Shown here piece after piece: positions 1,240 to 42,857 of a stretch of 64,000 bases of DNA. The stretch's first letter is position 1, and each line of letters opens with the position of its first letter. The DNA comes from Candidatus Levybacteria bacterium RIFCSPHIGHO2_01_FULL_38_26 (GTDB taxonomy: Bacteria > Patescibacteriota > Microgenomatia > Levybacterales > UBA12049). Position numbers and translations under genes: made by a program. The stretch is from positions 5,600-69,599 of the forward strand of contig MFNO01000016.1 of assembly GCA_001782075.1 (NCBI GenBank). The letters are read 5' to 3'. A model generated the notes under the pieces. It did no database searches. It was given only the letters and a program-made list of their open reading frames with translations, and had not been told where the DNA came from.

Positions 1240-1764
1240 CTAGGGCAAAAATGTAGGAGTCAAAGAGGGGTCAGCGGCAGGTGTACAGACTATCCCGGCT
1301 CTTCCCTGGTTAGTTGCGAAAGCAAACCATGCTATGTTTGGGGCACACTTACTGTTTTCAGAATTAGATTCCAGCCTAGCATACACTACAGCCTGAGGAG
1401 TACCTGCTACCAACCCCGTATTGTAACAATACCCCTGAAAGACTGTAGGAGTAGTACAAGCGAAAGCACCACTATATGCTGGATTAGCTGGAAACGCTTG
1501 TATCTCTCCAGCAGACACCAACTGATTTGGAGCTGTAGTCCACTCCGCGCTAGTTAGGTACTGACTTCTTACCGTGTAATAAGCCTGGAGAGCTCTTCCT
1601 AATTGTCCAATAGAAGTTTTTCTTCCAGCGTCTCTTCCTCTAGCCAACTGCTGAACCGGATCAATTGCTACTAAAACCACTGCTGCCAAAATACCGAGTA
1701 CTGCGATGACGATAAGAAGTTCAATTAATGTGAAGCCTTTTGATGATTTAGATAAGTTCTTCAT
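1240..1764 (-). CDS. type IV pilin / pseudopilin
   Basis: Leader MKNLSKSSKG followed by FTLIELLIVIAVLGILAAVV (prepilin cleavage/methylation motif G|FTLIE); Cys pairs in the C-terminal domain. Confidence 0.85.
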   Translation of the reverse strand: MKNLSKSSKGFTLIELLIVIAVLGILAAVVLVAIDPVQQLARGRDAGRKTSIGQLGRALQAYYTVRSQYLTSAEWTTAPNQLVSAGEIQAFPANPAYSGAFACTTPTVFQGYCYNTGLVAGTPQAVVYARLESNSENSKCAPNIAWFAFATNQGRAGIVCTPAADPSLTPTFLP

Positions 1765-1847
1765 TTATTTTTAAAACATATTTAGTGTAATCATAATCTT
1801 TAAATCTTGTCAAGAGGGCATTTTACTATAAGTTGATAAACGAGTGA

Positions 1848-2204
1848 TTAAAACAAGGGCACGTTGAAAAAATCTCCTACTATAGCAACAACAAAAAATG
1901 CCAAAAGCGCGACAACAAGCCCCACGATAGCGTATGTTATCTTTTCCCGAGCAGACTGAATTTTTTCTCTCTCTCCCCTTGCTATAATATAGCGAATCGA
2001 TCCCCAGAGGATATAGCCGATTGACAGAAGAATTATGATAGTCAGAAAGACGCTAACTCCAAGCTGAAGGATCTTTACTCCCTCAACAAATAAACTTCCC
2101 TCGGGTACGTTGGGTGGGGGAGTTATTCCTCCAAAACTGCCAGGCAAAGTCAAAGCAATATCCATACTACATTTACTGTACGTTAACAAAAACGGTTTTG
2201 TCAA
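1848..2204 (-). CDS. small membrane protein, unknown function
   Basis: 118 aa, two hydrophobic segments; start overlaps the histidine-kinase stop (operonic). Confidence 0.4.
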   Translation of the reverse strand: MTKPFLLTYSKCSMDIALTLPGSFGGITPPPNVPEGSLFVEGVKILQLGVSVFLTIIILLSIGYILWGSIRYIIARGEREKIQSAREKITYAIVGLVVALLAFFVVAIVGDFFNVPLF

Positions 2205-3538
2205 GAAAGAGGACTCGCGACTTTGACGGAAAATGTGAATGCAGAACCCTTGTCTTCTCCCTCAGACTCTACCCATATTCTACCACCATGCAATTCTACT
2301 ATAAGCTTACATAAATACAGTCCAAGTCCTGTCCCTTGAATATTTTTCTCTTTTTGTTTGGTAATCCCGACCATGCTAAATTTTTGAAAAAGTTTTGACA
2401 TGTCTTCTTTTTTTATCCCTATTCCATTATCTGAAACACATGTTTCTATAAAATTGTCTTTTTGGTTGAGTGAAACTGTAACTTTTCCTCCCCTTGGCGT
2501 AAACTTCAAACTATTTCCTATCAAATTCATCAACACTTCTTTTATTTTGCTGGAGTCTCCCCAAATCTCCGAAAGAGCAGGGGAGAAAGTCTCCATAATC
2601 TCAATTTGAAACTCTTTTGCCCGAGGGGTCATTTCCGTCACTACTTCCTTTACCAGATCATTGAGCCTAAGTCTTTTAAGGTCAAGAGTAATTTTCCCAG
2701 ACTCGATACGGGAAATGTTCAACATGTCGTTAACAAGCGCTATCAAACTATTGGTTGATCTATACGCAATATTTAGATAATCTTTTTGCTTTTCGGTTAC
2801 ATTTCCTCCGCGTCCCTGTAAAACCATCCAGATATAAGATTTAATAGCCACCATTGGAGTTCTTAGCTCATGGGACGCAAGCGACAAAAACTCATCTTTT
2901 AGCTTATCCAGTGTTTTTAATTTGTCATTTGCCTGCGACAATTCTTTGGACAATCTGGCAAGCTCTACATTTTTTTTATATACTTCCTCATTGACGTTCC
3001 TAAGGTCCTCTGTCGCGTCGCTGACTTTTTGTTCAAGCGTCGCATTGAATCTCTGAATTTCTTCAAAACTCCTGGCGTTTTGTATCGCGACAGCTGTCTC
3101 TGGCGCTAGAATCTTGAGAGCCTGAATTTCGTATGGGGTATACAAACCGCCCAGCAACTTCCTTCCCAGAAGCAACAGCCCAATATTTTCCTCTTGGGTA
3201 CGTAAACATACTACAACGGCAACATCAAGCTTTTTTAGTATATCTTTGAGCTTACCTTCTGGCAGTTCGTTAAAAACTAAAATTTTTACTTGGTCAGAAA
3301 GAATTGCTATTTCCTTCTCGTCAAATTCAGGGACTGAAGCATAACCCTCGTGCAATACTTGGTAAATTTTACTGTCTTTCGTCAGAAGAACAATTGCTCC
3401 ATGACTTATTCGCATTGCTGAAAGAAGTTCAGAGAGCAAGCGGTGCCCCAAATCTTCCAGTCGAAGAGTCGATGCCATAATTGTAGCTAAGTTATAAAGT
3501 ATGCCATGGATCGTCGAGGCGGACTGTTTAATATCCAT
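2201..3538 (-). CDS. sensor histidine kinase (GAF-like N-terminus, HisKA, HATPase_c), cytoplasmic
   Basis: H-box SHELRTPMVAIKSY, N-box LIGNSLKFT, G-boxes DNGIGI / GTGLGLYLCKLIVELHGG; coiled-coil linker; no TM segment. Confidence 0.85.
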   Translation of the reverse strand: MDIKQSASTIHGILYNLATIMASTLRLEDLGHRLLSELLSAMRISHGAIVLLTKDSKIYQVLHEGYASVPEFDEKEIAILSDQVKILVFNELPEGKLKDILKKLDVAVVVCLRTQEENIGLLLLGRKLLGGLYTPYEIQALKILAPETAVAIQNARSFEEIQRFNATLEQKVSDATEDLRNVNEEVYKKNVELARLSKELSQANDKLKTLDKLKDEFLSLASHELRTPMVAIKSYIWMVLQGRGGNVTEKQKDYLNIAYRSTNSLIALVNDMLNISRIESGKITLDLKRLRLNDLVKEVVTEMTPRAKEFQIEIMETFSPALSEIWGDSSKIKEVLMNLIGNSLKFTPRGGKVTVSLNQKDNFIETCVSDNGIGIKKEDMSKLFQKFSMVGITKQKEKNIQGTGLGLYLCKLIVELHGGRIWVESEGEDKGSAFTFSVKVASPLS

Positions 3539-3580
3539 ATCAAAAGAATAATCCAGATTGTGTTTATTGTCAAACCCAAA

Positions 3581-3859
3581 CTACAATAATAACTGCGGCC
3601 TTTGGTCTTGGGGAATTTTAGAAAGAACATCTTTTACCGCGTCTTTGCATACCTCAACCGACGCCTGACCAAAAAGCTCTCTGTATTGCCCAACCAACCT
3701 CTCAACAATTGTCTTCTGATCTCCATCAAATCTCACATCATGCTTTTCCCAATCAACATTTAATCCCTGAACCTTTCTTGCCTGCTCGAGCGCCACAGGA
3801 CCAATAATCCCTTCTTGCTCCCTAATAATTTTTTCAACTATTTGGGCAAAAATATCCAT
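3581..3859 (-). CDS. hypothetical protein (92 aa)
   Basis: ORF in operonic position between the membrane protein and the histidine kinase; no recognisable motif. Confidence 0.35.
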   Translation of the reverse strand: MDIFAQIVEKIIREQEGIIGPVALEQARKVQGLNVDWEKHDVRFDGDQKTIVERLVGQYRELFGQASVEVCKDAVKDVLSKIPQDQRPQLLL

Positions 3860-3862
3860 AGG

Positions 3863-4717
3863 TTATTTCCCTCGTAACTTAGATAAAACAGTTCGCATCT
3901 GTAATATACTAAGCGTCATTAAAAAGTACGCAACAACATACATGTAGTCCAAAATGCTGGCAGGATAATACTGTTCATAAAAAAAAATAAATGAATAATC
4001 TGCCAGAAACTGGCTGGCAAAGGCTATAATCAAAAGCATGATTCTATTTTTCATTATTCCCCCTAGTATATTCCTAGTAAGACTATAGGTAAGTATACCT
4101 ATTGAGATATATATTGCTTGTCCCATTGGATATCCAAAATCAAAAAATGTTTTAAGTGGATTTTCAAAATCCAAAGGATAGTTACGTAAGAACAAGAAAT
4201 AAGCAACGCTCAACATTATAAGAGGGACAATAATCGCCTGAAGCTTGTTCGCTAAGGATCTCAATGAAACCTTTACTCCTGAGGCTTTCGCAATAAGGTA
4301 AGAACCGTATATATAAAAGGGAATTGTACCAAAGAATCCAATATCTCCAAGGGAAGGGTAAGGAATTTCAATGCCAAGTACAAAAATATAAAAACTATAA
4401 GCAAGTTGACCAAACTCCTGCGCAAAAAGCCCTAGAGAAAACATGATAAGACCTCTGCCCATTACGCTTTTGAATCCGCCCCATGCCCTTGAAATGATAA
4501 ATCCCCAAATTCCGCCCCAGACTGCAATCAATCCATAGGTATGCCCAAAAAGTCCATAAAGGCCATGGTCCCTAGGTAAAAAAATGTGAATCAATATCCA
4601 CCAAAGACTAAAAAAGAAAAATAGGAAAACCGCAACCTGCGTTGGTCGATCTTTCCTAATTTCCTCCAACATACAATCAGCGTATAGAATATTCATAGAA
4701 TTGTCAAGTTGACTCAA
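3863..4717 (-). CDS. polytopic membrane protein, unknown function (possible sensor partner of the downstream kinase)
   Basis: 284 aa with about 7 hydrophobic helices; immediately upstream of a soluble histidine kinase on the same strand. Confidence 0.45.
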   Translation of the reverse strand: MSQLDNSMNILYADCMLEEIRKDRPTQVAVFLFFFFSLWWILIHIFLPRDHGLYGLFGHTYGLIAVWGGIWGFIISRAWGGFKSVMGRGLIMFSLGLFAQEFGQLAYSFYIFVLGIEIPYPSLGDIGFFGTIPFYIYGSYLIAKASGVKVSLRSLANKLQAIIVPLIMLSVAYFLFLRNYPLDFENPLKTFFDFGYPMGQAIYISIGILTYSLTRNILGGIMKNRIMLLIIAFASQFLADYSFIFFYEQYYPASILDYMYVVAYFLMTLSILQMRTVLSKLRGK

Positions 4718-4737
4718 AAATCGTATAATATAAGTCT

Positions 4738-5649
4738 GTGATTCCTCAATATCCAGATTTTAAAAAACTAACATTAGAGGATAAAAAAGAAATAGAAAAA
4801 CGTGTGCGTCAATACTCACCCTATTCTGACTTTAATTTCTTAAGCTTATGGAGTTATAACATAGACGATGACATTGTCATTTCAGATCTTTACGGCAACC
4901 TAGTAGTTCGTTTCCGTGATTACATTACCAATGAACCATTCTATTCTTTTATCGGCATCAATAATTTAACCAAAACCATAGATTCTCTTTTGAGGAAAAG
5001 CCAAGAGGAAGGACTAAAACCGATGTTAAAACTCATCCCAGATATTGTAAATAAATCAAGCCCCAAAGATACGAATAGATTTATTTTTGAAGAAGACAGA
5101 GACAATTTCGACTATATATTTTCTGTTTCTGAAATTGCGCAGTTAAACGGAAACAAATACCATACGCAAAAAAACTTTGTGAATAGGTTCCAAAATCTTC
5201 ACCAAAATTTTACCATTAGCCTATTGGATTTACTAAATGGTGACGTACAAACCCAAGTCCTCAATGTTTTTCACACGTGGAAAAGAGCAAAAAATTACGA
5301 CGATGACCATACTCAGCGCGAGCTCACTGCTCTAAATAGAACACTAACAAGCTCTTCTGATTTTAATCTAATAACTTTGGGCATCTACAATATAGAAAAG
5401 TCGCTGATAGGCTTTATAATCGCTGATTTATCAGAAGGAGGTTATGCTCAGTCTCACTTCGTTAAGGCTGACATCTCATATCCCGGGGTTTATTACACCC
5501 TTTATTTTTATCTTGCCAAACATCTGCAAGCAATGGGTTATGAGTTTTTGAATAATGGACAAGATCTTGGAATCATGGGGTTAAGAAAGTCAAAAGAACA
5601 ATGGAATCCAGTTGTATTTTTAAAAAAATATAAAATTACTTATTTATAA
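4738..5649 (+). CDS. hypothetical protein, possibly DUF2156/GNAT-like (MprF C-terminal-domain-like)
   Basis: 303 aa; N-terminal YSPYSDFNFLSLWSY motif recalled from DUF2156 proteins. Family assignment is from memory only. Confidence 0.4.
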   Translation: MIPQYPDFKKLTLEDKKEIEKRVRQYSPYSDFNFLSLWSYNIDDDIVISDLYGNLVVRFRDYITNEPFYSFIGINNLTKTIDSLLRKSQEEGLKPMLKLIPDIVNKSSPKDTNRFIFEEDRDNFDYIFSVSEIAQLNGNKYHTQKNFVNRFQNLHQNFTISLLDLLNGDVQTQVLNVFHTWKRAKNYDDDHTQRELTALNRTLTSSSDFNLITLGIYNIEKSLIGFIIADLSEGGYAQSHFVKADISYPGVYYTLYFYLAKHLQAMGYEFLNNGQDLGIMGLRKSKEQWNPVVFLKKYKITYL

Positions 5650-6523
5650 AATACAAACCCAGAAGGATAACAATCATAGCCAATAGTTTTTTTTGTTTGC
5701 TTCCGTAAGCTGCCTCTCTTAAGTATTTTGGAAAAAGCGGATAAAATACTAAAGCAAATAGAAGTACATATATCGGCTGTATCCCCTCAATAACTTTGAC
5801 AAGCGATACCGGACCTTTACTTATCGCAAGATTATTTGTAAATTCCGCAGCTATGCCTATGAGTTCAGCAGATATAAATACTAATATCCATTTCTTAAAA
5901 CTCTTGTTGAATTCACCTAAAAACCTCCTTCCCTCCCGAAAAAAAACAGAAAGAAAAACAGCTCCTAATCCCATTCCCATAGAGAAATACATATACCCGC
6001 TCCAAAAATCTAAAGCGTTATAAACATATTTTCCGCAAATCGCAACCAATGTATATAACAAGGCTGCAAATATCATGAAATAAAGAGCCTTGGAAAACTT
6101 AAATCTTTTGATATTTATTGCTGAAATAGTAAAAGACGCAAGAAGAATTAGCACAAAACCGATGTACTGGCTCGAGGTTAAAGACTCATCTAAAATAAAA
6201 TAAGCAAGGAATGGCACAAAGGCAGGAGAAAGACTAAATAGGGCAATCACTACTGATGGAGATTCCACATCCAACGCATGAAAATAGAACAAGTAGCTTA
6301 TTACGGTCAAAAATCCTGCAAGCAGTCCCAAAAAAATAATTGTAGGCGAGGAGATTGTAAGAGGAAAAAAAAATAAACCCAGTAGGGGCAGAAGAGCGAA
6401 AAATCCGGAGATAATAGCACCAAAAAACGGCGAACGGTATACGTTTCTTAGTAAATTGTCATCTATAATATTAACAATGGCAAAAAGAGCAGGACTTAGA
6501 AGGGCTATGTAAAACCACTCCAT
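5636..6523 (-). CDS. EamA/DMT-like permease
   Basis: 295 aa, about 10 TM helices in two halves typical of drug/metabolite transporter fold. Confidence 0.5.
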   Translation of the reverse strand: MEWFYIALLSPALFAIVNIIDDNLLRNVYRSPFFGAIISGFFALLPLLGLFFFPLTISSPTIIFLGLLAGFLTVISYLFYFHALDVESPSVVIALFSLSPAFVPFLAYFILDESLTSSQYIGFVLILLASFTISAINIKRFKFSKALYFMIFAALLYTLVAICGKYVYNALDFWSGYMYFSMGMGLGAVFLSVFFREGRRFLGEFNKSFKKWILVFISAELIGIAAEFTNNLAISKGPVSLVKVIEGIQPIYVLLFALVFYPLFPKYLREAAYGSKQKKLLAMIVILLGLYFINK

Positions 6524-6524
6524 G

Positions 6525-6929
6525 TTATTTATCTATATTTTCCGCTGGATATTTTTTTCCTCGTGTCTCAATATAAAATTCAACATCTTGAGTTTTAAAT
6601 ATTTCTTTAAAATAATCTGTAACTTTTTTAGTATTGAATTTTTTACAAGAGTAAACGTCTGCCGTGACAAATCTTCTCTTGATAAACGTATGCAAACTTA
6701 TGTGTGATTCTTGAATAATAACAAATCCAGACCATCCTCCTGGATCTTTTTTTCCATTGGATTTAGCAAAAACAACATGTGGCTCTATCAATTTTCTCAT
6801 GCCTATTTTTTTTGGAAGTGTATCTAAAATATTATGGACTAGTCCTTTATTATTCAGCGTGTCAGGATTACAGTTGTACATATCAATCATTAGGTGGAGC
6901 CCAAAAGGGGTAATTTTTGTTTTATTCAT
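6525..6929 (-). CDS. speH: S-adenosylmethionine decarboxylase proenzyme (pyruvoyl-dependent, SpeH/class 1)
   Basis: GLHLMIDMYNC ... GGWSGFVIIQESHISLHTF: the ESH self-cleavage site and overall length (134 aa) match archaeal/Bacillus-type AdoMetDC. Confidence 0.75.
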   Translation of the reverse strand: MNKTKITPFGLHLMIDMYNCNPDTLNNKGLVHNILDTLPKKIGMRKLIEPHVVFAKSNGKKDPGGWSGFVIIQESHISLHTFIKRRFVTADVYSCKKFNTKKVTDYFKEIFKTQDVEFYIETRGKKYPAENIDK

Positions 6930-7027: not shown

Positions 7028-7402
7028 ATGGCGCAGAAGATTTTGCTCATTGAAGACGATACCTATATAAGAAAACTATATGCGGAAGTTCTAGAACAAG
7101 CAGGATACGAGGTTGAGGTCGCAGAAGATGGAATTTCTGGTTTGGACAAGATCAACAGGGAAAAATTCGATGCAATCCTTTTAGATGTAGTGATGCCTAG
7201 GCTAGATGGGCTGGGAGTTCTTGAGTCGCTTGAAAAAAATCCGCCACCTCAAAAAAACGGCCCGATAATACTTCTGAGCAATCTTGCCAAAGACCCTATC
7301 ACCCAAGGGGGTCTGGATAAAGGGGCTGTCGGCTACATCGTAAAATCCGACATCAACCCTGATGAGTTGATTGAAAAAATACAGAAGTTTTTGACTAATT
7401 AA
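7028..7402 (+). CDS. response regulator, receiver domain only (CheY-like)
   Basis: ILLIEDD acidic pocket, phospho-acceptor D in LLDVVMP, conserved S/T (LLSNL) and K (YIVK); no output domain. Its stop overlaps the pilC-derived stop (TTAA). Confidence 0.85.
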   Translation: MAQKILLIEDDTYIRKLYAEVLEQAGYEVEVAEDGISGLDKINREKFDAILLDVVMPRLDGLGVLESLEKNPPPQKNGPIILLSNLAKDPITQGGLDKGAVGYIVKSDINPDELIEKIQKFLTN

Positions 7403-7526
7403 AATGCTTGAATCAGGTTGTAAATTGGAGTAAGCACAGATATTATCAAAAGCGCAACCCCAACTCCCAACAAAACCATAATAAAAGGCTCCATTGCTGT
7501 AGTGAGAGTTTTGATTGCCTGATCAA
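7350..7526. repeat. direct repeat copy 1 (~177 bp, identical to 9808..9985)
   Basis: Visual alignment: acatcaaccctgatgagttgattgaaaaaatacagaagtttttgactaattaaaatgcttgaatcaggttg...ttgattgcctgatcaa occurs twice. Spans the RR 3' end plus the pilC 3' end. Confidence 0.9.
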
Positions 7527-7782
7527 GCGTTAGAATAGATTTTCTATCAATAAAAATTTCTAGGAGTTTTAGAAGGATAATCCGATTCTGCGGAATTCTT
7601 GTTCCTCTCTGCCAGTGAGAGAAAATGCTGTCTTCATAAATAAAACCTTTTTCCGCAAGCGCACTGCCTAATTCAGACAAGGTAGAAAGTTCAGCTTTCA
7701 ACCTGTATTTTTTAAAAAGCGTCGAGAACTTGCTGGTCTCTGACTGCATATCGCAAGCTAATTCTACCACAACCTTTGTCAA
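7399..7782 (-). CDS. chimeric ORF: XRE-type HTH fragment fused to the last 41 aa of PilC (derived from repeat copy 1)
   Basis: N-terminal part LSELGSALAEKGFIYEDSIFSHWQRGTRIPQNRIILLKLLEIF resembles Cro/C1 HTH. C-terminal DQAIKTLTTAMEPFIMVLLGVGVALLIISVLTPIYNLIQAF is identical to the PilC C-terminus (9858..). Confidence 0.5.
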   Translation of the reverse strand: MTKVVVELACDMQSETSKFSTLFKKYRLKAELSTLSELGSALAEKGFIYEDSIFSHWQRGTRIPQNRIILLKLLEIFIDRKSILTLDQAIKTLTTAMEPFIMVLLGVGVALLIISVLTPIYNLIQAF

Positions 7783-7838
7783 CTTGCCTGAAGAGACTGT
7801 TATATAGCATAGCTTTATTTTTTTACTTATTTTTATCT

Positions 7839-8288
7839 CTACTGTTTTATCTGGGCTGTCTGAATCATATTCCCCATTGATGAAGTGCCTGAAGTGGAAA
7901 CTGTGCCTTGTGTTGATAAATGTTGCGTTGCAGTTTTTGGAGTTGGTGTTGGCGTAGGAGTTGGAAAATCGTCTATCCAGATATCTTTTCCTGCCGAATC
8001 AGTTCCTATCCAGACTTGTGCTTGATTTAAATCTGACCGCCAATACCAACCACCGTATTGTTTTGCTTTTTGCGTTGTTTGAGTCTGGTGTGATACTGAT
8101 TTAGCTTCTGGTGTTGGAGAAGGAGTTAGAGTAGGCGTGGGAGTAGAAGCTAGAGGTAGCGAGATGGTTGTAGATACACCTTTTACAGATGACCTTGGCC
8201 ATTCATTCAAAATAATGACACCACTACCAATCAGGCAAATAACAAAACCTAATCCCAGAATCGTTTTGTTCATGTTCATATTGATCAT
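7839..8288 (-). CDS. membrane-anchored/secreted protein with TPTPTP linkers
   Basis: N-terminal hydrophobic anchor, two (TP)n low-complexity linkers flanking a small domain (QYGGWYWRSDLNQAQVWIGTDSAGKDIWIDDF). Confidence 0.45.
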   Translation of the reverse strand: MINMNMNKTILGLGFVICLIGSGVIILNEWPRSSVKGVSTTISLPLASTPTPTLTPSPTPEAKSVSHQTQTTQKAKQYGGWYWRSDLNQAQVWIGTDSAGKDIWIDDFPTPTPTPTPKTATQHLSTQGTVSTSGTSSMGNMIQTAQIKQ

Positions 8289-8554
8289 TTTGTATATTTA
8301 CTATTCCACCATTGCAGAATTTTTTTAACGTTTTGATTAAGTTCATGTGGTCTTGAATCAATACCAAAATGGTCTTTTAGTTCTTTTGAAAGAAAAGAAG
8401 TGAGTTTATCTGAATCTGCTCTTTTACGCATTAATGAGAAAATCGGCGCAATTAAACAATCATATTCGTCTTTCGGTCCACCTTTGAAAGGTAAAACTCC
8501 GATAAAATCCCATGTATTTAATAAACGAATTAGCTCTTGTTTTTGAGATTTCAT
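8285..8554 (-). CDS. small cytoplasmic protein, candidate (orphan) immunity protein
   Basis: 89 aa, ATGA start/stop overlap with neighbour; positional inference only (downstream of an Rhs toxin tip). Confidence 0.35.
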   Translation of the reverse strand: MKSQKQELIRLLNTWDFIGVLPFKGGPKDEYDCLIAPIFSLMRKRADSDKLTSFLSKELKDHFGIDSRPHELNQNVKKILQWWNSKYTK

Positions 8555-8623
8555 ATATAGAATAAGTACGTTTTTGCATTAATACTCATAGGCCTAATAT
8601 TTTAGCACTAAATAGTCAATAAT

Positions 8624-8977
8624 TTATATAAGGAAAAATGCATGAAATAGAAAATTGATAAAAATAATAGCTAGAAAAACCCAAAATGAGCTACGGGTTT
8701 TTCTAGCTAATTCATTCAATTCTTGATCTTTATGACTTTCAAAAATTATCTTCCATTGAAGAAGAGGGACAATCGGTAACTTCTGTAAATAATCAAGAGG
8801 ATCTTTAGAAAAATAGTTAGTTGCCTCTCCGAATAATAGAGGATAATCAGGATTTATTTTTTTTCGATATAACCTAACATATTTCTTATAAGACCTTAGA
8901 AAGATAATGCAACCTAAGAAAAAGGGTGTAAAAAACGTAATTATTATAAATGGGAAGCCTACATGAAGCGAATCCAT
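8624..8977 (-). CDS. small membrane protein, candidate immunity protein for the upstream Rhs-CT
   Basis: 117 aa with N- and C-terminal TM segments; located 16 bp downstream of the toxin-tip ORF on the same strand. Confidence 0.4.
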   Translation of the reverse strand: MDSLHVGFPFIIITFFTPFFLGCIIFLRSYKKYVRLYRKKINPDYPLLFGEATNYFSKDPLDYLQKLPIVPLLQWKIIFESHKDQELNELARKTRSSFWVFLAIIFINFLFHAFFLI

Positions 8978-8992
8978 ACAACTAGTTATTTA

Positions 8993-9769
8993 TTATTGAG
9001 ATATCCATGGAAATGCCCATGAATACGAGGCACCACCATGAATTTCAACTGGTAGCAATACAACTCCGCCTATTGTAACATCAGGACCAGGAGTAAATCC
9101 ACCACTAAATGTCTTAATTGAGGGATCATCATGATCCTGGGCTACGTCAATACCGCCTGCCCATGCAGATCCTCCAGCAAACGTATCACGACCCGCTATT
9201 TGTTCAAAATTATTAGCATTCGTAACAAATCCTGTCACTCCGACTCCAGACGCTACCCCTGCAACACCACCTCCACCTACAGAAGCTATTGGCCCAGCCT
9301 GCCAACCTGTCCCCCAATTAGAAGAATTTGAATCTTTTGCTATTCCAATACAGAATGAGCAAGTACCATATATACCTGCTCCTAAGTTGGCACTTACACA
9401 AAGTCCAATAGCCATTTCTCCCGAGGGATCAGAAAGATTGATTGGGTTATTCAAGGCATAAGCATAAGGATTCTGCGTCTGAGGGTTATTAACCATACCA
9501 TCTATTGGATCTCTTGAAATGAATTGACCATTAACAGGATCATAATAACGTGCTCTCATATAGTACATGTCACTTTCTTCATCGAGATATTGTTCTTGAA
9601 ATTGATATTTTGGAGGGATACTGTTATCATATCGCTTGTTTCCAAAGGGATCATAATCCGTCTGCGATGCTTCGTTTCCGGACGAATTAGACGTAAACCT
9701 TATATTACCCATTCCATCTTCCATAATCCATTCTCGTCCAGAATTTGATCCAGAACCTACGCTAATCAA
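8993..9769 (-). CDS. Rhs/YD-repeat C-terminal fragment: Rhs repeat-associated core + glycine-rich C-terminal (toxin-like) domain; 5'-truncated
   Basis: YDPFGNKRY YD repeat, then MRARYYDPVNGQFISRDPIDG...NPYAYALNNPINLSDPSGE (canonical Rhs core ending in DPxGx), followed by ~138 aa Gly-rich tail (GGGGVAGVASGVGVTG...). No N-terminal region. The reading frame stays open upstream into repeat copy 2 without a plausible start. Confidence 0.7.
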   Translation of the reverse strand: MISVGSGSNSGREWIMEDGMGNIRFTSNSSGNEASQTDYDPFGNKRYDNSIPPKYQFQEQYLDEESDMYYMRARYYDPVNGQFISRDPIDGMVNNPQTQNPYAYALNNPINLSDPSGEMAIGLCVSANLGAGIYGTCSFCIGIAKDSNSSNWGTGWQAGPIASVGGGGVAGVASGVGVTGFVTNANNFEQIAGRDTFAGGSAWAGGIDVAQDHDDPSIKTFSGGFTPGPDVTIGGVVLLPVEIHGGASYSWAFPWISQ

Positions 9770-9807
9770 TTCTTGATTTAGTCCATAGATGTTGAATTCG
9801 GAAACAT

Positions 9808-9985
9808 AACATCAACCCTGATGAGTTGATTGAAAAAATACAGAAGTTTTTGACTAATTAAAATGCTTGAATCAGGTTGTAAATTGGAGTAAGCACAGAT
9901 ATTATCAAAAGCGCAACCCCAACTCCCAACAAAACCATAATAAAAGGCTCCATTGCTGTAGTGAGAGTTTTGATTGCCTGATCAA
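9808..9985. repeat. direct repeat copy 2 (~177 bp, identical to 7350..7526)
   Basis: See copy 1; here attached to the intact pilC 3' end and to an orphan remnant of the RR 3' end. Confidence 0.9.
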
Positions 9986-11066
9986 CTTCTCCCTCAAAGT
10001 ACTCCGAGGCTTTTAGCAATAACTCATCTATTTTCCCAGTCTGCTCGCCAACCTCGACCAAATGTACCAGAAGAGGAGGGAACAGCTCGTGATGCGAAAG
10101 AGAAGACGCCACAGATTCACCCTTTTCAACTCTACTGGAAACATCAAGAATCGCGTTTTTGTAATGAATATTGCCTGTAATTTCAGAAACCCTGTTCAGA
10201 GAATCAACAATTAAAGTTCCGCTTCCCACCAATAATCCAAAAGTTCTTGAAAACTCGGTAAGTATTGTCTTTCTGATTAGGGGACCAAAGATTGGAAGCT
10301 TTAACACTAAATTACCAATCACTACTTGTCCAGTTTCTGTTTTGTTCCAAAATCTAAAAAGGACAGCAAAAACTACCATAAAAATTAACCCGATTGGCCA
10401 ATAAGCAACTGTAAAATCAGAAATACCAACAACAATCCTGGTTATCAACGGCAACTCAAGATTAGGAATGCTTGTGTAAAGCACGGAAAGAGTAGGGATG
10501 ACAAAAACCATCATTATAAACACAACAACAACCATTCCTGATACAACTATCGAGGGGTAAAGAAGAGCTGCTTTAATAGTACTTTTGAGCTTTTGATCTT
10601 TTTCAAGATTATCTGCAAAACGAAGAAGCGCCTTGTCCAGAAGTCCAGAGGATTCAGAAGCCTTAATCGTCGAGACATAAACAGGCGAAAAAACCTTTGG
10701 AAATCTTCCGACAGCTGCTGAAAAAGACTGCCCTCCCTCAATGCCTCCAATAACCCCTTCTATAACCTCCGAAAGAGAAGTTTTTTTTGTCTGGTTTTTC
10801 AAAACCTCTAAAGATCGCACAAGAGTAAGCCCCGACGACAACATAGAAGCCAATTGTCTCGTAAATATTACGACATCACTTGAGGTAACTTTGCCAAAGG
10901 GGAGAGGCAAGTCCTCCAAAATATTGCCACTACTTTTTTTTGAAACCTTTATTGGAAAAAATGCTTTACTTCTCAGGTATTCAGCGGCCTGATGTTCGCT
11001 TTGGGCTTCTATTGTTCCCTGAATTAGTTTTCCTTCTTTGGTTGCCGCCTTGTAAGATAATTTCAT
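9858..11066 (-). CDS. pilC: type IV pilus assembly protein PilC (GspF family inner-membrane platform)
   Basis: 402 aa, two T2SSF-like repeats with 3 TM segments, upstream of pilT/pilB. Confidence 0.9.
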   Translation of the reverse strand: MKLSYKAATKEGKLIQGTIEAQSEHQAAEYLRSKAFFPIKVSKKSSGNILEDLPLPFGKVTSSDVVIFTRQLASMLSSGLTLVRSLEVLKNQTKKTSLSEVIEGVIGGIEGGQSFSAAVGRFPKVFSPVYVSTIKASESSGLLDKALLRFADNLEKDQKLKSTIKAALLYPSIVVSGMVVVVFIMMVFVIPTLSVLYTSIPNLELPLITRIVVGISDFTVAYWPIGLIFMVVFAVLFRFWNKTETGQVVIGNLVLKLPIFGPLIRKTILTEFSRTFGLLVGSGTLIVDSLNRVSEITGNIHYKNAILDVSSRVEKGESVASSLSHHELFPPLLVHLVEVGEQTGKIDELLLKASEYFEGEVDQAIKTLTTAMEPFIMVLLGVGVALLIISVLTPIYNLIQAF

Positions 11067-14702: not shown

Positions 14703-15164
14703 CTATATAAGTCTGGACTCTCTCAATATATTAAATGTCAAGCCATGGCCGGCCCTTTCAACAAAATCTTCCGTTTCCTGGGGGTTTAAACGCAATATTC
14801 TAGCCATTAATATCGTATCGCCTAAGCTGGGGTGACTACGCTGGTCGCTAACTAACAAATGCACATAAGCATCAGAATAATCTAGACGTCTTGCAAACTC
14901 AGCCTTAGTAACCCCCAATCTCTGTATATAAACTCCTAGTCTTCCTCCAAGGCTTTCCGGCATTACTTCGGGTAAGGCATCAGGGCTAAAGTTTATCGGA
15001 GCGCTAACCATCTCTTTTCGAATCTCTTCTATGGAAGGCACGCCCAGATATGCGTCAACTATTTGACCAAGCTCACCCAGTTGTTCTGGTTTATTTATAC
15101 TATTGATTCTAGAAGTAATATGGTGTTTAATATTCTCGACCATAATAATATTATACAATACCAA
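14703..15164 (-). CDS. HTH (XRE-like) domain protein
   Basis: LGVYIQRLGVTKAEFARRLDYSDAYVHLLVSDQRSHPSLGDTILMARIL resembles Cro/C1-type HTH. Confidence 0.45.
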   Translation of the reverse strand: MVLYNIIMVENIKHHITSRINSINKPEQLGELGQIVDAYLGVPSIEEIRKEMVSAPINFSPDALPEVMPESLGGRLGVYIQRLGVTKAEFARRLDYSDAYVHLLVSDQRSHPSLGDTILMARILRLNPQETEDFVERAGHGLTFNILRESRLI

Positions 15165-41356: not shown

Positions 41357-41902
41357 TTAACCTTCAAGCTGCTGTGGTCTTGCAAAAGCATTTCTTGCAA
41401 AATTCAAAAAAATTGGCCCCATGCGACCACGTGGGTGTTTATTGTTAGATACCGCCTGCCTAATTTGCCCTAAAGTTCTATATTCTTTCCTTTTGAACGT
41501 GTTCAGAAATCCAGAATAGGCAGCCTTTACTCTTTTATCTATGGGTAAAAGATCTAATTCATTCAGTCTGCCCAGTTCAAGATCACTGATTCTCACTTCA
41601 TTTCCTAAATATTGACCGACATTTTCATTAATCTCTTTTGCCACACTAACGCTCAACAATGGCTTACCGGCGGCAATGTCTATTTTTGAAAGAATATCGG
41701 CTATTTTTAATCTAGCTTCTTCCATTTTGCCAAATTTTATAGGGAATTGGTCTGGAACGCCTGCTATTCTGAAGTTCACTGCATCAGCTTCTAACATAGC
41801 TGCCTCAGCCAAAAAACCATTCTGCCTATATTCTCTGGCTAAGTTTTCTAATTTTGATACCATAGTTCGCGCATTATAACACCAGGCTTCACTTATTTCC
41901 AC
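41357..41902 (-). CDS. hypothetical protein co-transcribed with the Xer-like recombinase
   Basis: 181 aa; start overlaps the recombinase stop by 14 nt. Confidence 0.4.
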   Translation of the reverse strand: MEISEAWCYNARTMVSKLENLAREYRQNGFLAEAAMLEADAVNFRIAGVPDQFPIKFGKMEEARLKIADILSKIDIAAGKPLLSVSVAKEINENVGQYLGNEVRISDLELGRLNELDLLPIDKRVKAAYSGFLNTFKRKEYRTLGQIRQAVSNNKHPRGRMGPIFLNFARNAFARPQQLEG

Positions 41903-42857
41903 TGTGGAAGGCTTCGTGCACCTCCCTTAGCTGTTTATTTGTGATGTGTGTATAAATCTGGGTGGTTGAGATATTTTTGTGGCCCAACATTTCCTGGACA
42001 CTCCTGAGGTCGGCGCCGTTTGAAAGCAAATCTGTTGCAAAACTATGCCTTAGTGTATGCACTGTAGCGTCCACGGGCAACCGAGCCAAGCGAACGTATT
42101 TTTTGACAATCCTTTCAACGCTTCTGGCTGTTAGCCTCATTTTTTCACCATTGTTGTCCTCAATAATTTTTCCCGAATAGCGGATAAATAGGGGAGAGAA
42201 GCGGTCTTTTCGCGCCTCTTGGTATCGCTTTATCCAATCAGAAGCTCTGTCTGAGATAAAAACCAAACGCGCACGCCCTCCTTTGCCAATAACTCCAAAT
42301 TCTTTTCTCTCCAAATTTACCTGACTGTGATTCAACCGCACCAGTTCTGAAACACGAAGTCCGGTTGAAAACAAAAGCTCTACGATAGTCCGATCCCGCA
42401 TCCCTTCTTCCTTTGAAGTATCAACCGACGTGACCAGACGATCCACCTGATCTCTATCCAAAAACTTCAAGCTTCTGCTTTCTGCTTTTGGCAAATCAAT
42501 CTTTGACGGTTCAAGCACTTTATGATCATTTTTTATCAAGAAACGCAAAAAAGACCGTAGAGCTATAACGTAATAATTCTGGGTAATTCGCTTCAGAGTC
42601 AAACCCTTTTCATCCGCCCTGTTTGCCAAAAAAACTCTGTATTTTCTAACTGTTGCAATATCTAGACTCTCGATAGATTTATTAGGCAGGGTGGAGGAAA
42701 GCCAATTGGAAAAAACCTCAAGATAATGCCTATAGTCCCGAATAGTGAGCTTGGAGCAATTCTTCTCAATTTCCAAGTATTCAAGGAACTGATCAATTAG
42801 CTCGTTTAAGTTAGAGGAGATCATTATTTTCAGTATACCAAAATCATTTTGCGACAT
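41889..42857 (-). CDS. tyrosine site-specific recombinase, XerC/XerD family
   Basis: N-terminal SAM-like core-binding domain; catalytic R..., HTLRHSFATDLLSNGADLRSVQEMLGHKNISTTQIYTH (RHRH+Y signature). Confidence 0.85.
   Translation of the reverse strand: MSQNDFGILKIMISSNLNELIDQFLEYLEIEKNCSKLTIRDYRHYLEVFSNWLSSTLPNKSIESLDIATVRKYRVFLANRADEKGLTLKRITQNYYVIALRSFLRFLIKNDHKVLEPSKIDLPKAESRSLKFLDRDQVDRLVTSVDTSKEEGMRDRTIVELLFSTGLRVSELVRLNHSQVNLERKEFGVIGKGGRARLVFISDRASDWIKRYQEARKDRFSPLFIRYSGKIIEDNNGEKMRLTARSVERIVKKYVRLARLPVDATVHTLRHSFATDLLSNGADLRSVQEMLGHKNISTTQIYTHITNKQLREVHEAFHSGNK

Follow-up and report, generated by a model that had tools for sequence, protein, structure and literature searches.

In Enterobacteria (Salmonella, E. 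coli, Serratia), orphan rhs-CT/immunity modules have been described in which a 5'-truncated core and a variable toxin domain are followed by a small immunity gene, and these modules are thought to be kept for immunity or as a reservoir of toxins (PMC3967940, Koskiniemi 2014; PMC3482391, Zhang 2012; PMC10539506). Immunity genes retained without a deliverable toxin, and presumed to protect against neighbours, are also reported from the type VI secretion system arrays of V. cholerae (PMC5361080) and from an immunity islet of S. Typhi (PMC7400221). Templated inserts with microhomology at their joints and duplication of the sequence at the insertion point are described among human complex insertions as products of replicative template switching (FoSTeS, fork stalling and template switching, or MMBIR, break-induced replication mediated by microhomology; PMC5120786). 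Here we describe a locus that invites comparison with all three, found in a 64,000-nucleotide stretch (hereafter the window, whose first letter is position 1) of contig MFNO01000016.1 from Candidatus Levybacteria bacterium RIFCSPHIGHO2_01_FULL_38_26, an uncultivated groundwater member of the Microgenomates within the candidate phyla radiation (CPR). In this window an inserted segment, X, lies between a receiver-only response regulator (RR) gene and the pilus gene pilC, and is bracketed by two perfect 177-bp direct repeats, D1 and D2, each of which carries the ends of both genes. The present structure is an insertion with target duplication at the convergent ends of RR and pilC, and the gene content of X identifies it as the 3' part of an RHS polymorphic-toxin locus.

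Insertion with target duplication at the RR/pilC junction

D1 and D2 match at 177 of 177 nucleotides in a base-by-base alignment (Table 1). Every copy holds the final 53 nt of the RR gene and the final 128 nt of pilC, stop included, with the stops of the two genes overlapping in the sequence TTAA (7399-7402 in D1, 9858-9861 in D2). D1 runs on into the intact RR gene and D2 into the intact pilC, which closes a pilB-pilT-pilC run with a DNA_pol3_delta2 gene (holB) upstream on the opposite strand. Much of this layout had been drawn in a first-pass annotation made from the letters of the window, and its account of the repeat (the RR end, the pilC end, the TTAA stops and the continuity with each flank) is borne out by our check of open reading frames (ORFs) and alignments, as is the 2.28-kb spacer with its five minus-strand ORFs. 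The copies are indeed identical as it held, although the second had been placed one base too far to the left, at 9808: that base is A whereas base 7349 is G, so that D2 begins at 9809.

Table 1. Window coordinates of the inserted segment, the repeats that flank it and the genes involved.
Feature	Position	Strand	Description
RR gene (receiver-only response regulator), intact	7028-7402	+	PF00072, E=1.5e-24
D1, repeat copy 1	7350-7526		RR 3' end (7350-7402) and duplicated orphan pilC 3' end (7399-7526)
Chimeric ORF	7399-7782	-	Residues 1-86 from X; residues 87-127 (41 aa) are the PilC C-terminus
Candidate microhomology at the D1/X joint	7515-7526	-	TTGATCAGGCAA; encodes (L)DQA
X, inserted segment	7527-9808		2,282 bp; D and X together 2,459 bp
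p149, 149-aa protein	7839-8288	-	N-terminal hydrophobic anchor, Pro/Thr-rich linkers, conserved core
p89, 89-aa cytosolic protein	8285-8554	-	Candidate second (orphan) immunity or accessory protein, from linkage to RHS genes
p117, 117-aa protein	8624-8977	-	Two transmembrane helices; hydrophobic segments 3-30 and 96-117
RHS gene, 5'-truncated	8993-9808	-	Frame open from the joint at 9808; first possible start TTG at 9769
D2, repeat copy 2	9809-9985		Duplicated orphan RR 3' end (9809-9861) and functional pilC 3' end (9858-9985)
pilC (T2SSF platform protein), intact	9858-11066	-	PF00482, E=2.5e-56

Evidence that the junctions are real consists of assembled contigs (contigs and loci are cited below by handles such as L001). 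Exact-protein look-ups, with PilC and RR as queries, gave about 20 contigs that represent at least eight samples and three pipelines (scaffolded ANAN16 assemblies, MEGAHIT k141 and JGI/AMFJ). Five of these contigs (L001, L010, L013, L015, L017) run through the RR-D1-X junction with unique sequence on either side, and four (L001, L003, L004, L006) do so through the X-D2-pilC junction; the spanning contigs come from different samples and from the three pipelines. The data are metagenomic, the repeat exceeds the largest k-mer and six MEGAHIT contigs (L002, L005, L008, L011, L014, L018) break within it, all of which might suggest an assembly artefact or two strain variants fused in one contig. However, these six contigs end exactly 141 nt into the repeat, which is where a k=141 graph breaks at a true 177-nt repeat. 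Moreover, the uninterrupted RR/pilC junction (the empty site) appears in none of the roughly 20 exact-protein contigs, and an exact-pattern scan for it across JGI metagenome contigs gave 0 matches. We regard an assembly chimera as very unlikely, and as the least credible of the explanations weighed here; the suggestion of the first-pass annotation that a strain-variable island may have been collapsed by assembly is disfavoured in the same way, both junctions being spanned in several contigs from different samples and assemblers. Two contigs, L006 and L015, look like variants at 99.6% identity, and scaffold Ns account for all of their differences, so that the population appears nearly clonal. 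Sample ERZ28563803 has the window in two pieces: scaffold_1139 stops near window position 15.4 kb and scaffold_2373 spans the carbamoyl-phosphate synthase region. The assembly behind the 64-kb window is thus more contiguous than those behind most public contigs.

The state of the site before insertion can be read from relatives and from the repeat itself. The nearest PilC proteins in genome and metagenome collections are 63-73% identical to that of the window, and the order holB, pilB-pilT-pilC is kept in about 150 related loci, with holB on the strand opposite to pilB, pilT and pilC. The nearest relatives have the RR gene convergent with pilC and directly against it: the two genes overlap by 4 nt in L104 and by 9 nt in L101, L105 and L106, and are separated by a spacer of 25-85 bp in L069, L071 and L097. 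X is missing from the junction in all of these nearest relatives. Both repeat copies hold the uninterrupted overlap, indicating that the direct ancestor had overlapping RR and pilC genes; and since the junction is uninterrupted in the nearest relatives and in both copies alike, the structure in the window is an insertion that duplicated its target. The first-pass reading of an insertion or duplication is thereby supported, and the alignment to related genomes that it had proposed shows a junction that overlaps or abuts in these seven loci.

The pair D1/D2 is also the sole repeat of at least 40 nt in a scan of the whole window, barring the paralogy of pilB and pilT at 71% identity, in agreement with the earlier expectation of a single repeat. 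In 1.78 Mb of related Levybacteria loci, just four pairs of direct repeats reach both 50 bp and 95% identity, and long direct repeats are so rare in this DNA that D is not a product of chance. Among 161 related loci we found no relevant pilC-tail duplication or comparable long repeat.

Some further observations concern the repeats and the site. One of the four long direct repeats in the related loci is a perfect 126-bp repeat in L098 (1-126 and 283-408, spacing 282 bp), at the edge of an RHS orphan region. A long repeat in L081 was considered as a recurrence of the phenomenon and rejected, being a pair of paralogous pilin genes. As single-stranded DNA, D has a fold z-score of -0.57 and no notable structure. 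An inverted repeat, ATCAAC...GTTGAT, lies two bases inside the left edge of each copy (7352-7371 and 9811-9830) and on the pilC strand has a weak terminator-like hairpin score, the T-rich tail of copy 2 coming from X; we rejected it as a special terminator because the region holds no more such sites than shuffled sequence does. In other relatives, different DNA stands at the junction: L107 has 3.5 kb of metabolic genes between pilC and RR (1670-5193, encoding a HAD-hydrolase/methyltransferase-like protein of 473 aa, an aminotransferase-like one of 403 aa and a third of 258 aa), and in L047 and L090 the intervening DNA measures about 850 bp, in each case without flanking repeats. Genes seem to have been gained repeatedly at the pilC/RR junction.

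Gene content of the inserted segment

By its coding content X is the 3' part of an RHS locus, cut inside genes at both ends, and none of its ORFs is related to the pilus genes, as had been noted at first pass. The nature of this cargo, the gene-cutting ends and a probable microhomology at one joint are points that go beyond the earlier description. At the right-hand end the truncated RHS gene encodes an RHS-associated core at residues 52-130 (TIGR03696, E=2.1e-22, 79.4 bits against a cut-off of 32.5) and, at the boundary of core and toxin, the motif NPINLSDPSGE, of the DPxG cleavage type, whose residues D127, P128, S129 and G130 do not vary among 16-18 homologues. The remainder is a C-terminal toxin domain of 140 aa, which has the fold of a Vap-like beta-barrel. 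Only 130 residues of RHS core are left, where full-length relatives are 1,469-1,864 aa long, and the large N-terminal YD-repeat shell (>1,000 aa) and the trafficking domain are absent. Similarity to the long RHS gene of L104 extends to the first codon past the joint (residue 1) and a stop codon stands two codons upstream of the fragment, within D2, which together argue that the gene was cut at an arbitrary point. No other RHS-like sequence occurs in the 64-kb window, and the best non-self match to the core in databases has 50-60% identity. As it lacks shell and export part, the truncated toxin is probably inert. Database matches to the fragment are mostly short proteins of the 200-250-aa type; such proteins are found in the classic RHS loci of related CPR contigs (L098, 1-16130; L180, 1-6529; L191), where full-length genes of 1,528-1,864 aa precede arrays of 200-250-aa orphans with a core and a C-terminal toxin domain (CT) and small presumed immunity genes.

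The gene for p117 follows the toxin domain directly. Genes for proteins of 116-118 aa stand directly after the same type of toxin domain in L104, L180 and L182; p117 is 45-47% identical to the proteins of L104 and L180, and the 116-aa gene of L182 is matched by position alone. Linkage of a gene of this type to the same toxin domain in three loci suggests a toxin/immunity pair, and makes p117 the probable cognate immunity protein of the adjacent domain. In L104 a homologous cassette of RHS, 118-aa and 161-aa genes occupies another site (4468-6810), after an EamA transporter gene, about 2 kb from that contig's uninterrupted pilC/RR junction and in opposite orientation; the contig ends inside the RHS gene.

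Two smaller genes further along X also point to RHS loci. A homologue of p89 with 88% identity lies downstream of an RHS-containing gene of at least 1,469 aa in L186 and L187 (called RHS from a tblastn match to the window fragment, with no Pfam call), and another lies between RHS fragments in L191. The protein p149 has a transmembrane segment at residues 7-31 and no match in Pfam or NCBIfam, and its core is 83% identical to the 161-aa protein beside the RHS gene of L104. As a pair, p89 and p149 recur downstream of a full RHS gene in the Hainich groundwater contigs L186-L190, at 80-86% nucleotide identity.

At the left-hand end of X a gene of helix-turn-helix (HTH) fold is truncated at its 3' end and reads in frame into D1. 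Intact members of its family go on with ...ANEFLxSAxQGYLT, while the window copy matches them until ...TLDQA and then continues as the tail of PilC. The chimera with a 41-aa PilC C-terminus reported in the first-pass annotation is confirmed, residues 87-127 being identical to the PilC end; by hydropathy this tail forms a transmembrane helix at residues 92-127. The XRE-HTH label given to the remaining part fares less evenly: Pfam HTH models of the HTH_3/HTH_31 type match none of 15 family members at E<=1, although the label is consistent with the predicted fold. An AF2 model of the domain is a four-helix structure (pLDDT 79) whose top Foldseek neighbours are all HTH proteins of the cro/C1 type (EspR, SinR, POU-specific, C.AhdI), with probability up to 0.99 and TM about 0.6 at weak E-values of 0.3 or more. 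L098 and L099 have members of this family beside their RHS genes. Near RHS loci there are also several copies that stand alone (P0123, P0125, P0129) and are cut at slightly different points around residues 85-95, and in L069 (13050-15518) the domain forms the N-terminus of an 822-aa NTPase of the NB-ARC (STAND) type, the C-terminus of which is a multi-pass membrane part. Another HTH protein, of 153 aa and matched by HTH_31, encoded just past holB in the window (14703-15164, minus strand, E=2.4e-07), is unrelated in sequence to the cassette gene.

Joints and possible routes of entry

None of the ORFs of the insert encodes a recombinase, transposase, integrase or excisionase domain, and there are no inverted repeats at the ends of X (7527 and 9808). 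The locus is therefore unlike a transposon or insertion sequence, which would show a transposase, terminal inverted repeats and a target duplication of 2-15 bp rather than 177 bp. It might still be supposed that X is a degenerate, integrase-less island, mobilised in cis through attL and attR sites inside the D copies by a tyrosine recombinase acting in trans: islands that integrate into the 3' ends of genes bring a replacement gene end and leave direct repeats, and the window does encode one tyrosine recombinase. However, this sole recombinase of the window (322 aa, 41889-42857 on the minus strand; Phage_int_SAM_1 and Phage_integrase, E=3e-42) lies 32 kb away among housekeeping genes, and by its architecture is probably XerC/D-like; it is not linked to the cassette. 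Both ends of X fall inside truncated ORFs and show no att-type element boundary, the repeats are host sequence over 100% of their length, searches of phage, plasmid and viral-contig collections with X gave no match, and the relatives with other DNA at the junction (L107, L047, L090) are without such repeats. We consider a degenerate island highly improbable.

What the joints themselves preserve is more informative on the left than on the right. Read on the coding strand, the repeat opens with TT GAT CAG GCA A, which codes for (L)DQA and so fits the consensus [NDE][QED]A of the HTH-fold family, in which at least 90% of members keep the alanine; in the DNA of the closest homologue (L194), CTTAATCAAGCAAAT, 11 of 13 positions agree with those of pilC, GTTGATCAGGCAATC. 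With the DQA codons fitting the consensus and the L194 DNA agreeing so closely, the D1/X joint appears to lie within a microhomology between donor and pilC: the donor gene and pilC likely shared about 9-12 nt here, and the joint likely formed within them, in which case the true duplication would be 165-177 bp. The donor of X was not found in databases (the best non-self matches are 50% for RHS, 75-83% for the HTH-fold gene and 88% for p89), so that the joints cannot be compared with the true source, and none of the insert genes turned up there a second time in other surroundings. The composition of X is close to that of its host (G+C content 0.369 against 0.386 +/- 0.022 for windows of the same size; tetranucleotide distance at the 90th percentile), which is consistent with a related, compositionally similar donor.

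To arrive at the order A-D-X-D-B, two illegitimate joints are required, set off from each other by 177 bp. We lean, with some reserve, towards a single illegitimate insertion, independent of any recombinase, in which a 2.28-kb 3' fragment of the RHS locus of a related Levybacterium entered the junction and duplicated its target. The joints would have fallen at arbitrary positions in the donor genes, at least one of them at a short microhomology, and the event would have copied 165-177 bp of target onto both sides of the fragment. Most economically this would be one replication or repair event with two template switches, the polymerase leaving the chromosome at 7526, copying X from an ectopic or incoming template and re-entering at 7350; equivalently, a staggered break may have been filled in and then joined to a linear fragment. 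That so rare a product survived may be explained by the 4-nt overlap of RR and pilC, because only duplication of both ends leaves both genes whole. The selectable cargo would be the membrane immunity gene, perhaps together with the 89-aa and 149-aa genes; lying behind pilBTC and oriented like it, this cargo would be expressed by read-through from the pil operon and would protect against the RHS toxins of neighbours. On this view D-X-D is probably the outcome of a single accident of recombination, retained for the immunity genes it carries, and not a new kind of mobile element. We call the insertion recent only on account of the identity of the repeats and the intact reading frames of the cargo.

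The strongest competitor is a Campbell-type insertion-duplication, in which a 2,459-bp circle of X plus one D would have entered by a single RecA-dependent crossover. Two identical full-length copies of the homology around X are the exact product of such a crossover (177/177), a homology of 177 bp is above the length that supports integration of this kind in transformable bacteria, and type IV pilus/competence-type machinery is encoded beside the site; the circle could even have been the excision product of a sibling cell, taken up through a competence pilus, which would spread the cassette without a recombinase of its own. Nevertheless, a circle that holds both D and X must first form through the same two illegitimate joints, and this route therefore adds a step rather than replacing one. 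Taken-up DNA is, moreover, linear and single-stranded, and no contig contains either the circle junction (X end-D-X start) or the empty site, although short-read assemblies could not resolve these. A Campbell-type origin seems unlikely to us, though it deserves to be taken seriously.

Two successive rearrangements might also have built the structure, first a large tandem duplication with a joint between the RHS locus and 7350, then a deletion from 7526 to the start of X. Each step would be an ordinary illegitimate event, and an RHS locus near the site is plausible in the ancestor, given that the homologous locus of L104 is only about 2 kb from its RR/pilC junction. The original X, with intact RHS and HTH genes, would however be expected nearby, whereas the window holds no second copy and the databases no other context for its genes; the cassette is oriented opposite to that of L104; and the scheme calls for two rare events and, on top of them, loss of the source. 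We find this history improbable. Slightly more doubtful still is the idea that the repeats are a working part, such that homologous recombination of the host moves the cassette out of the chromosome as a 2,459-bp circle and back again, and uptake with Campbell-type re-insertion carries it from cell to cell. Were it true, the cassette would be a recombinase-free, self-targeting vehicle for orphan immunity genes in a pilus-bearing, presumably competent population; as they stand, the repeats do make it precisely deletable by homologous recombination.

Several points weigh against a single illegitimate insertion as the account of this locus. The supporting contigs all appear to derive from one nearly clonal aquifer population, and their independence, though good, is incomplete because some assemblies may share raw data. 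A Campbell-type origin would yield an identical final sequence. With the donor missing, the microhomology at 7515-7526 is deduced from homologues at 75-83% identity, while the X/D2 joint allows no such deduction, the RHS DNA of L104 being too divergent. Lastly, it is gene linkage that suggests an immunity role for p117, and with it the benefit that would have kept the cassette.

Comparison with known systems

The locus opens no new class of element and answers no long-standing question. Its value is as a clean, multiply assembled natural case of probably foreign DNA entering a streamlined CPR genome without mobile-element machinery, at a site of overlapping convergent genes: a site without intergenic space can take DNA if both gene ends are duplicated. 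It also suggests that RHS toxin/immunity fragments travel outside RHS loci in Levybacteria, and it brings into view an RHS toxin domain, so far uncharacterised, whose fold is a Vap-like barrel and whose probable immunity partner is a membrane protein. Annotators are warned by it that the chimeric ORF and the toxin remnant should not be taken for functional genes.

In islands inserted by an integrase (e.g. e14 in icd), long direct repeats of the end of the target gene keep that gene intact, and these islands carry an integrase, usually imperfect repeats and defined att sites. X shares the long repeats of a target gene end but has neither integrase nor att sites, and its repeats are perfect. Campbell-type insertion-duplication likewise leaves an insert between two identical chromosomal segments a few hundred bp long; laboratory versions use an engineered plasmid as the circle, however, whereas no natural circle, plasmid backbone or origin accompanies X. 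The products of FoSTeS/MMBIR resemble our locus, as we would read it, in their templated insert and in duplication of the sequence at the insertion point, and the microhomology at their joints has a likely counterpart at D1/X, but those cases concern eukaryotic genomes and a scale of kb to Mb. Searches of the literature gave no earlier example from bacteria in which a templated insert is flanked by a duplication of 177 bp, and we know of no documented bacterial case with a flanking duplication of that length.

In its cargo the locus is closest to the orphan modules of Enterobacteria, X consisting of a truncated RHS core with its toxin domain followed by a putative immunity gene. Known rhs orphans, however, lie directly downstream of a full-length rhs gene with which they share a core for recombination, while the module in the window has no such rhs gene in 64 kb and stands instead with a pilus gene on one side and a response regulator gene on the other, enclosed by the two copies of its target. 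The orphan immunity genes of V. cholerae and S. Typhi resemble the putative ones of X in being retained without a deliverable toxin, but their arrays arise by displacement through homologous recombination at effector loci, in contrast to the illegitimate insertion elsewhere in the chromosome that we favour here. The toxin domain itself can be compared with the Vap proteins of Rhodococcus equi (VapB, 4cv7; VapG, 5aeo), to which it has about 10% sequence identity and no Pfam family match; unlike them, the barrel in the window is cargo of an RHS toxin and is paired with a putative membrane immunity protein. What is new in this locus is a combination of known kinds, an orphan toxin/immunity fragment joined with a probable illegitimate duplicative insertion.

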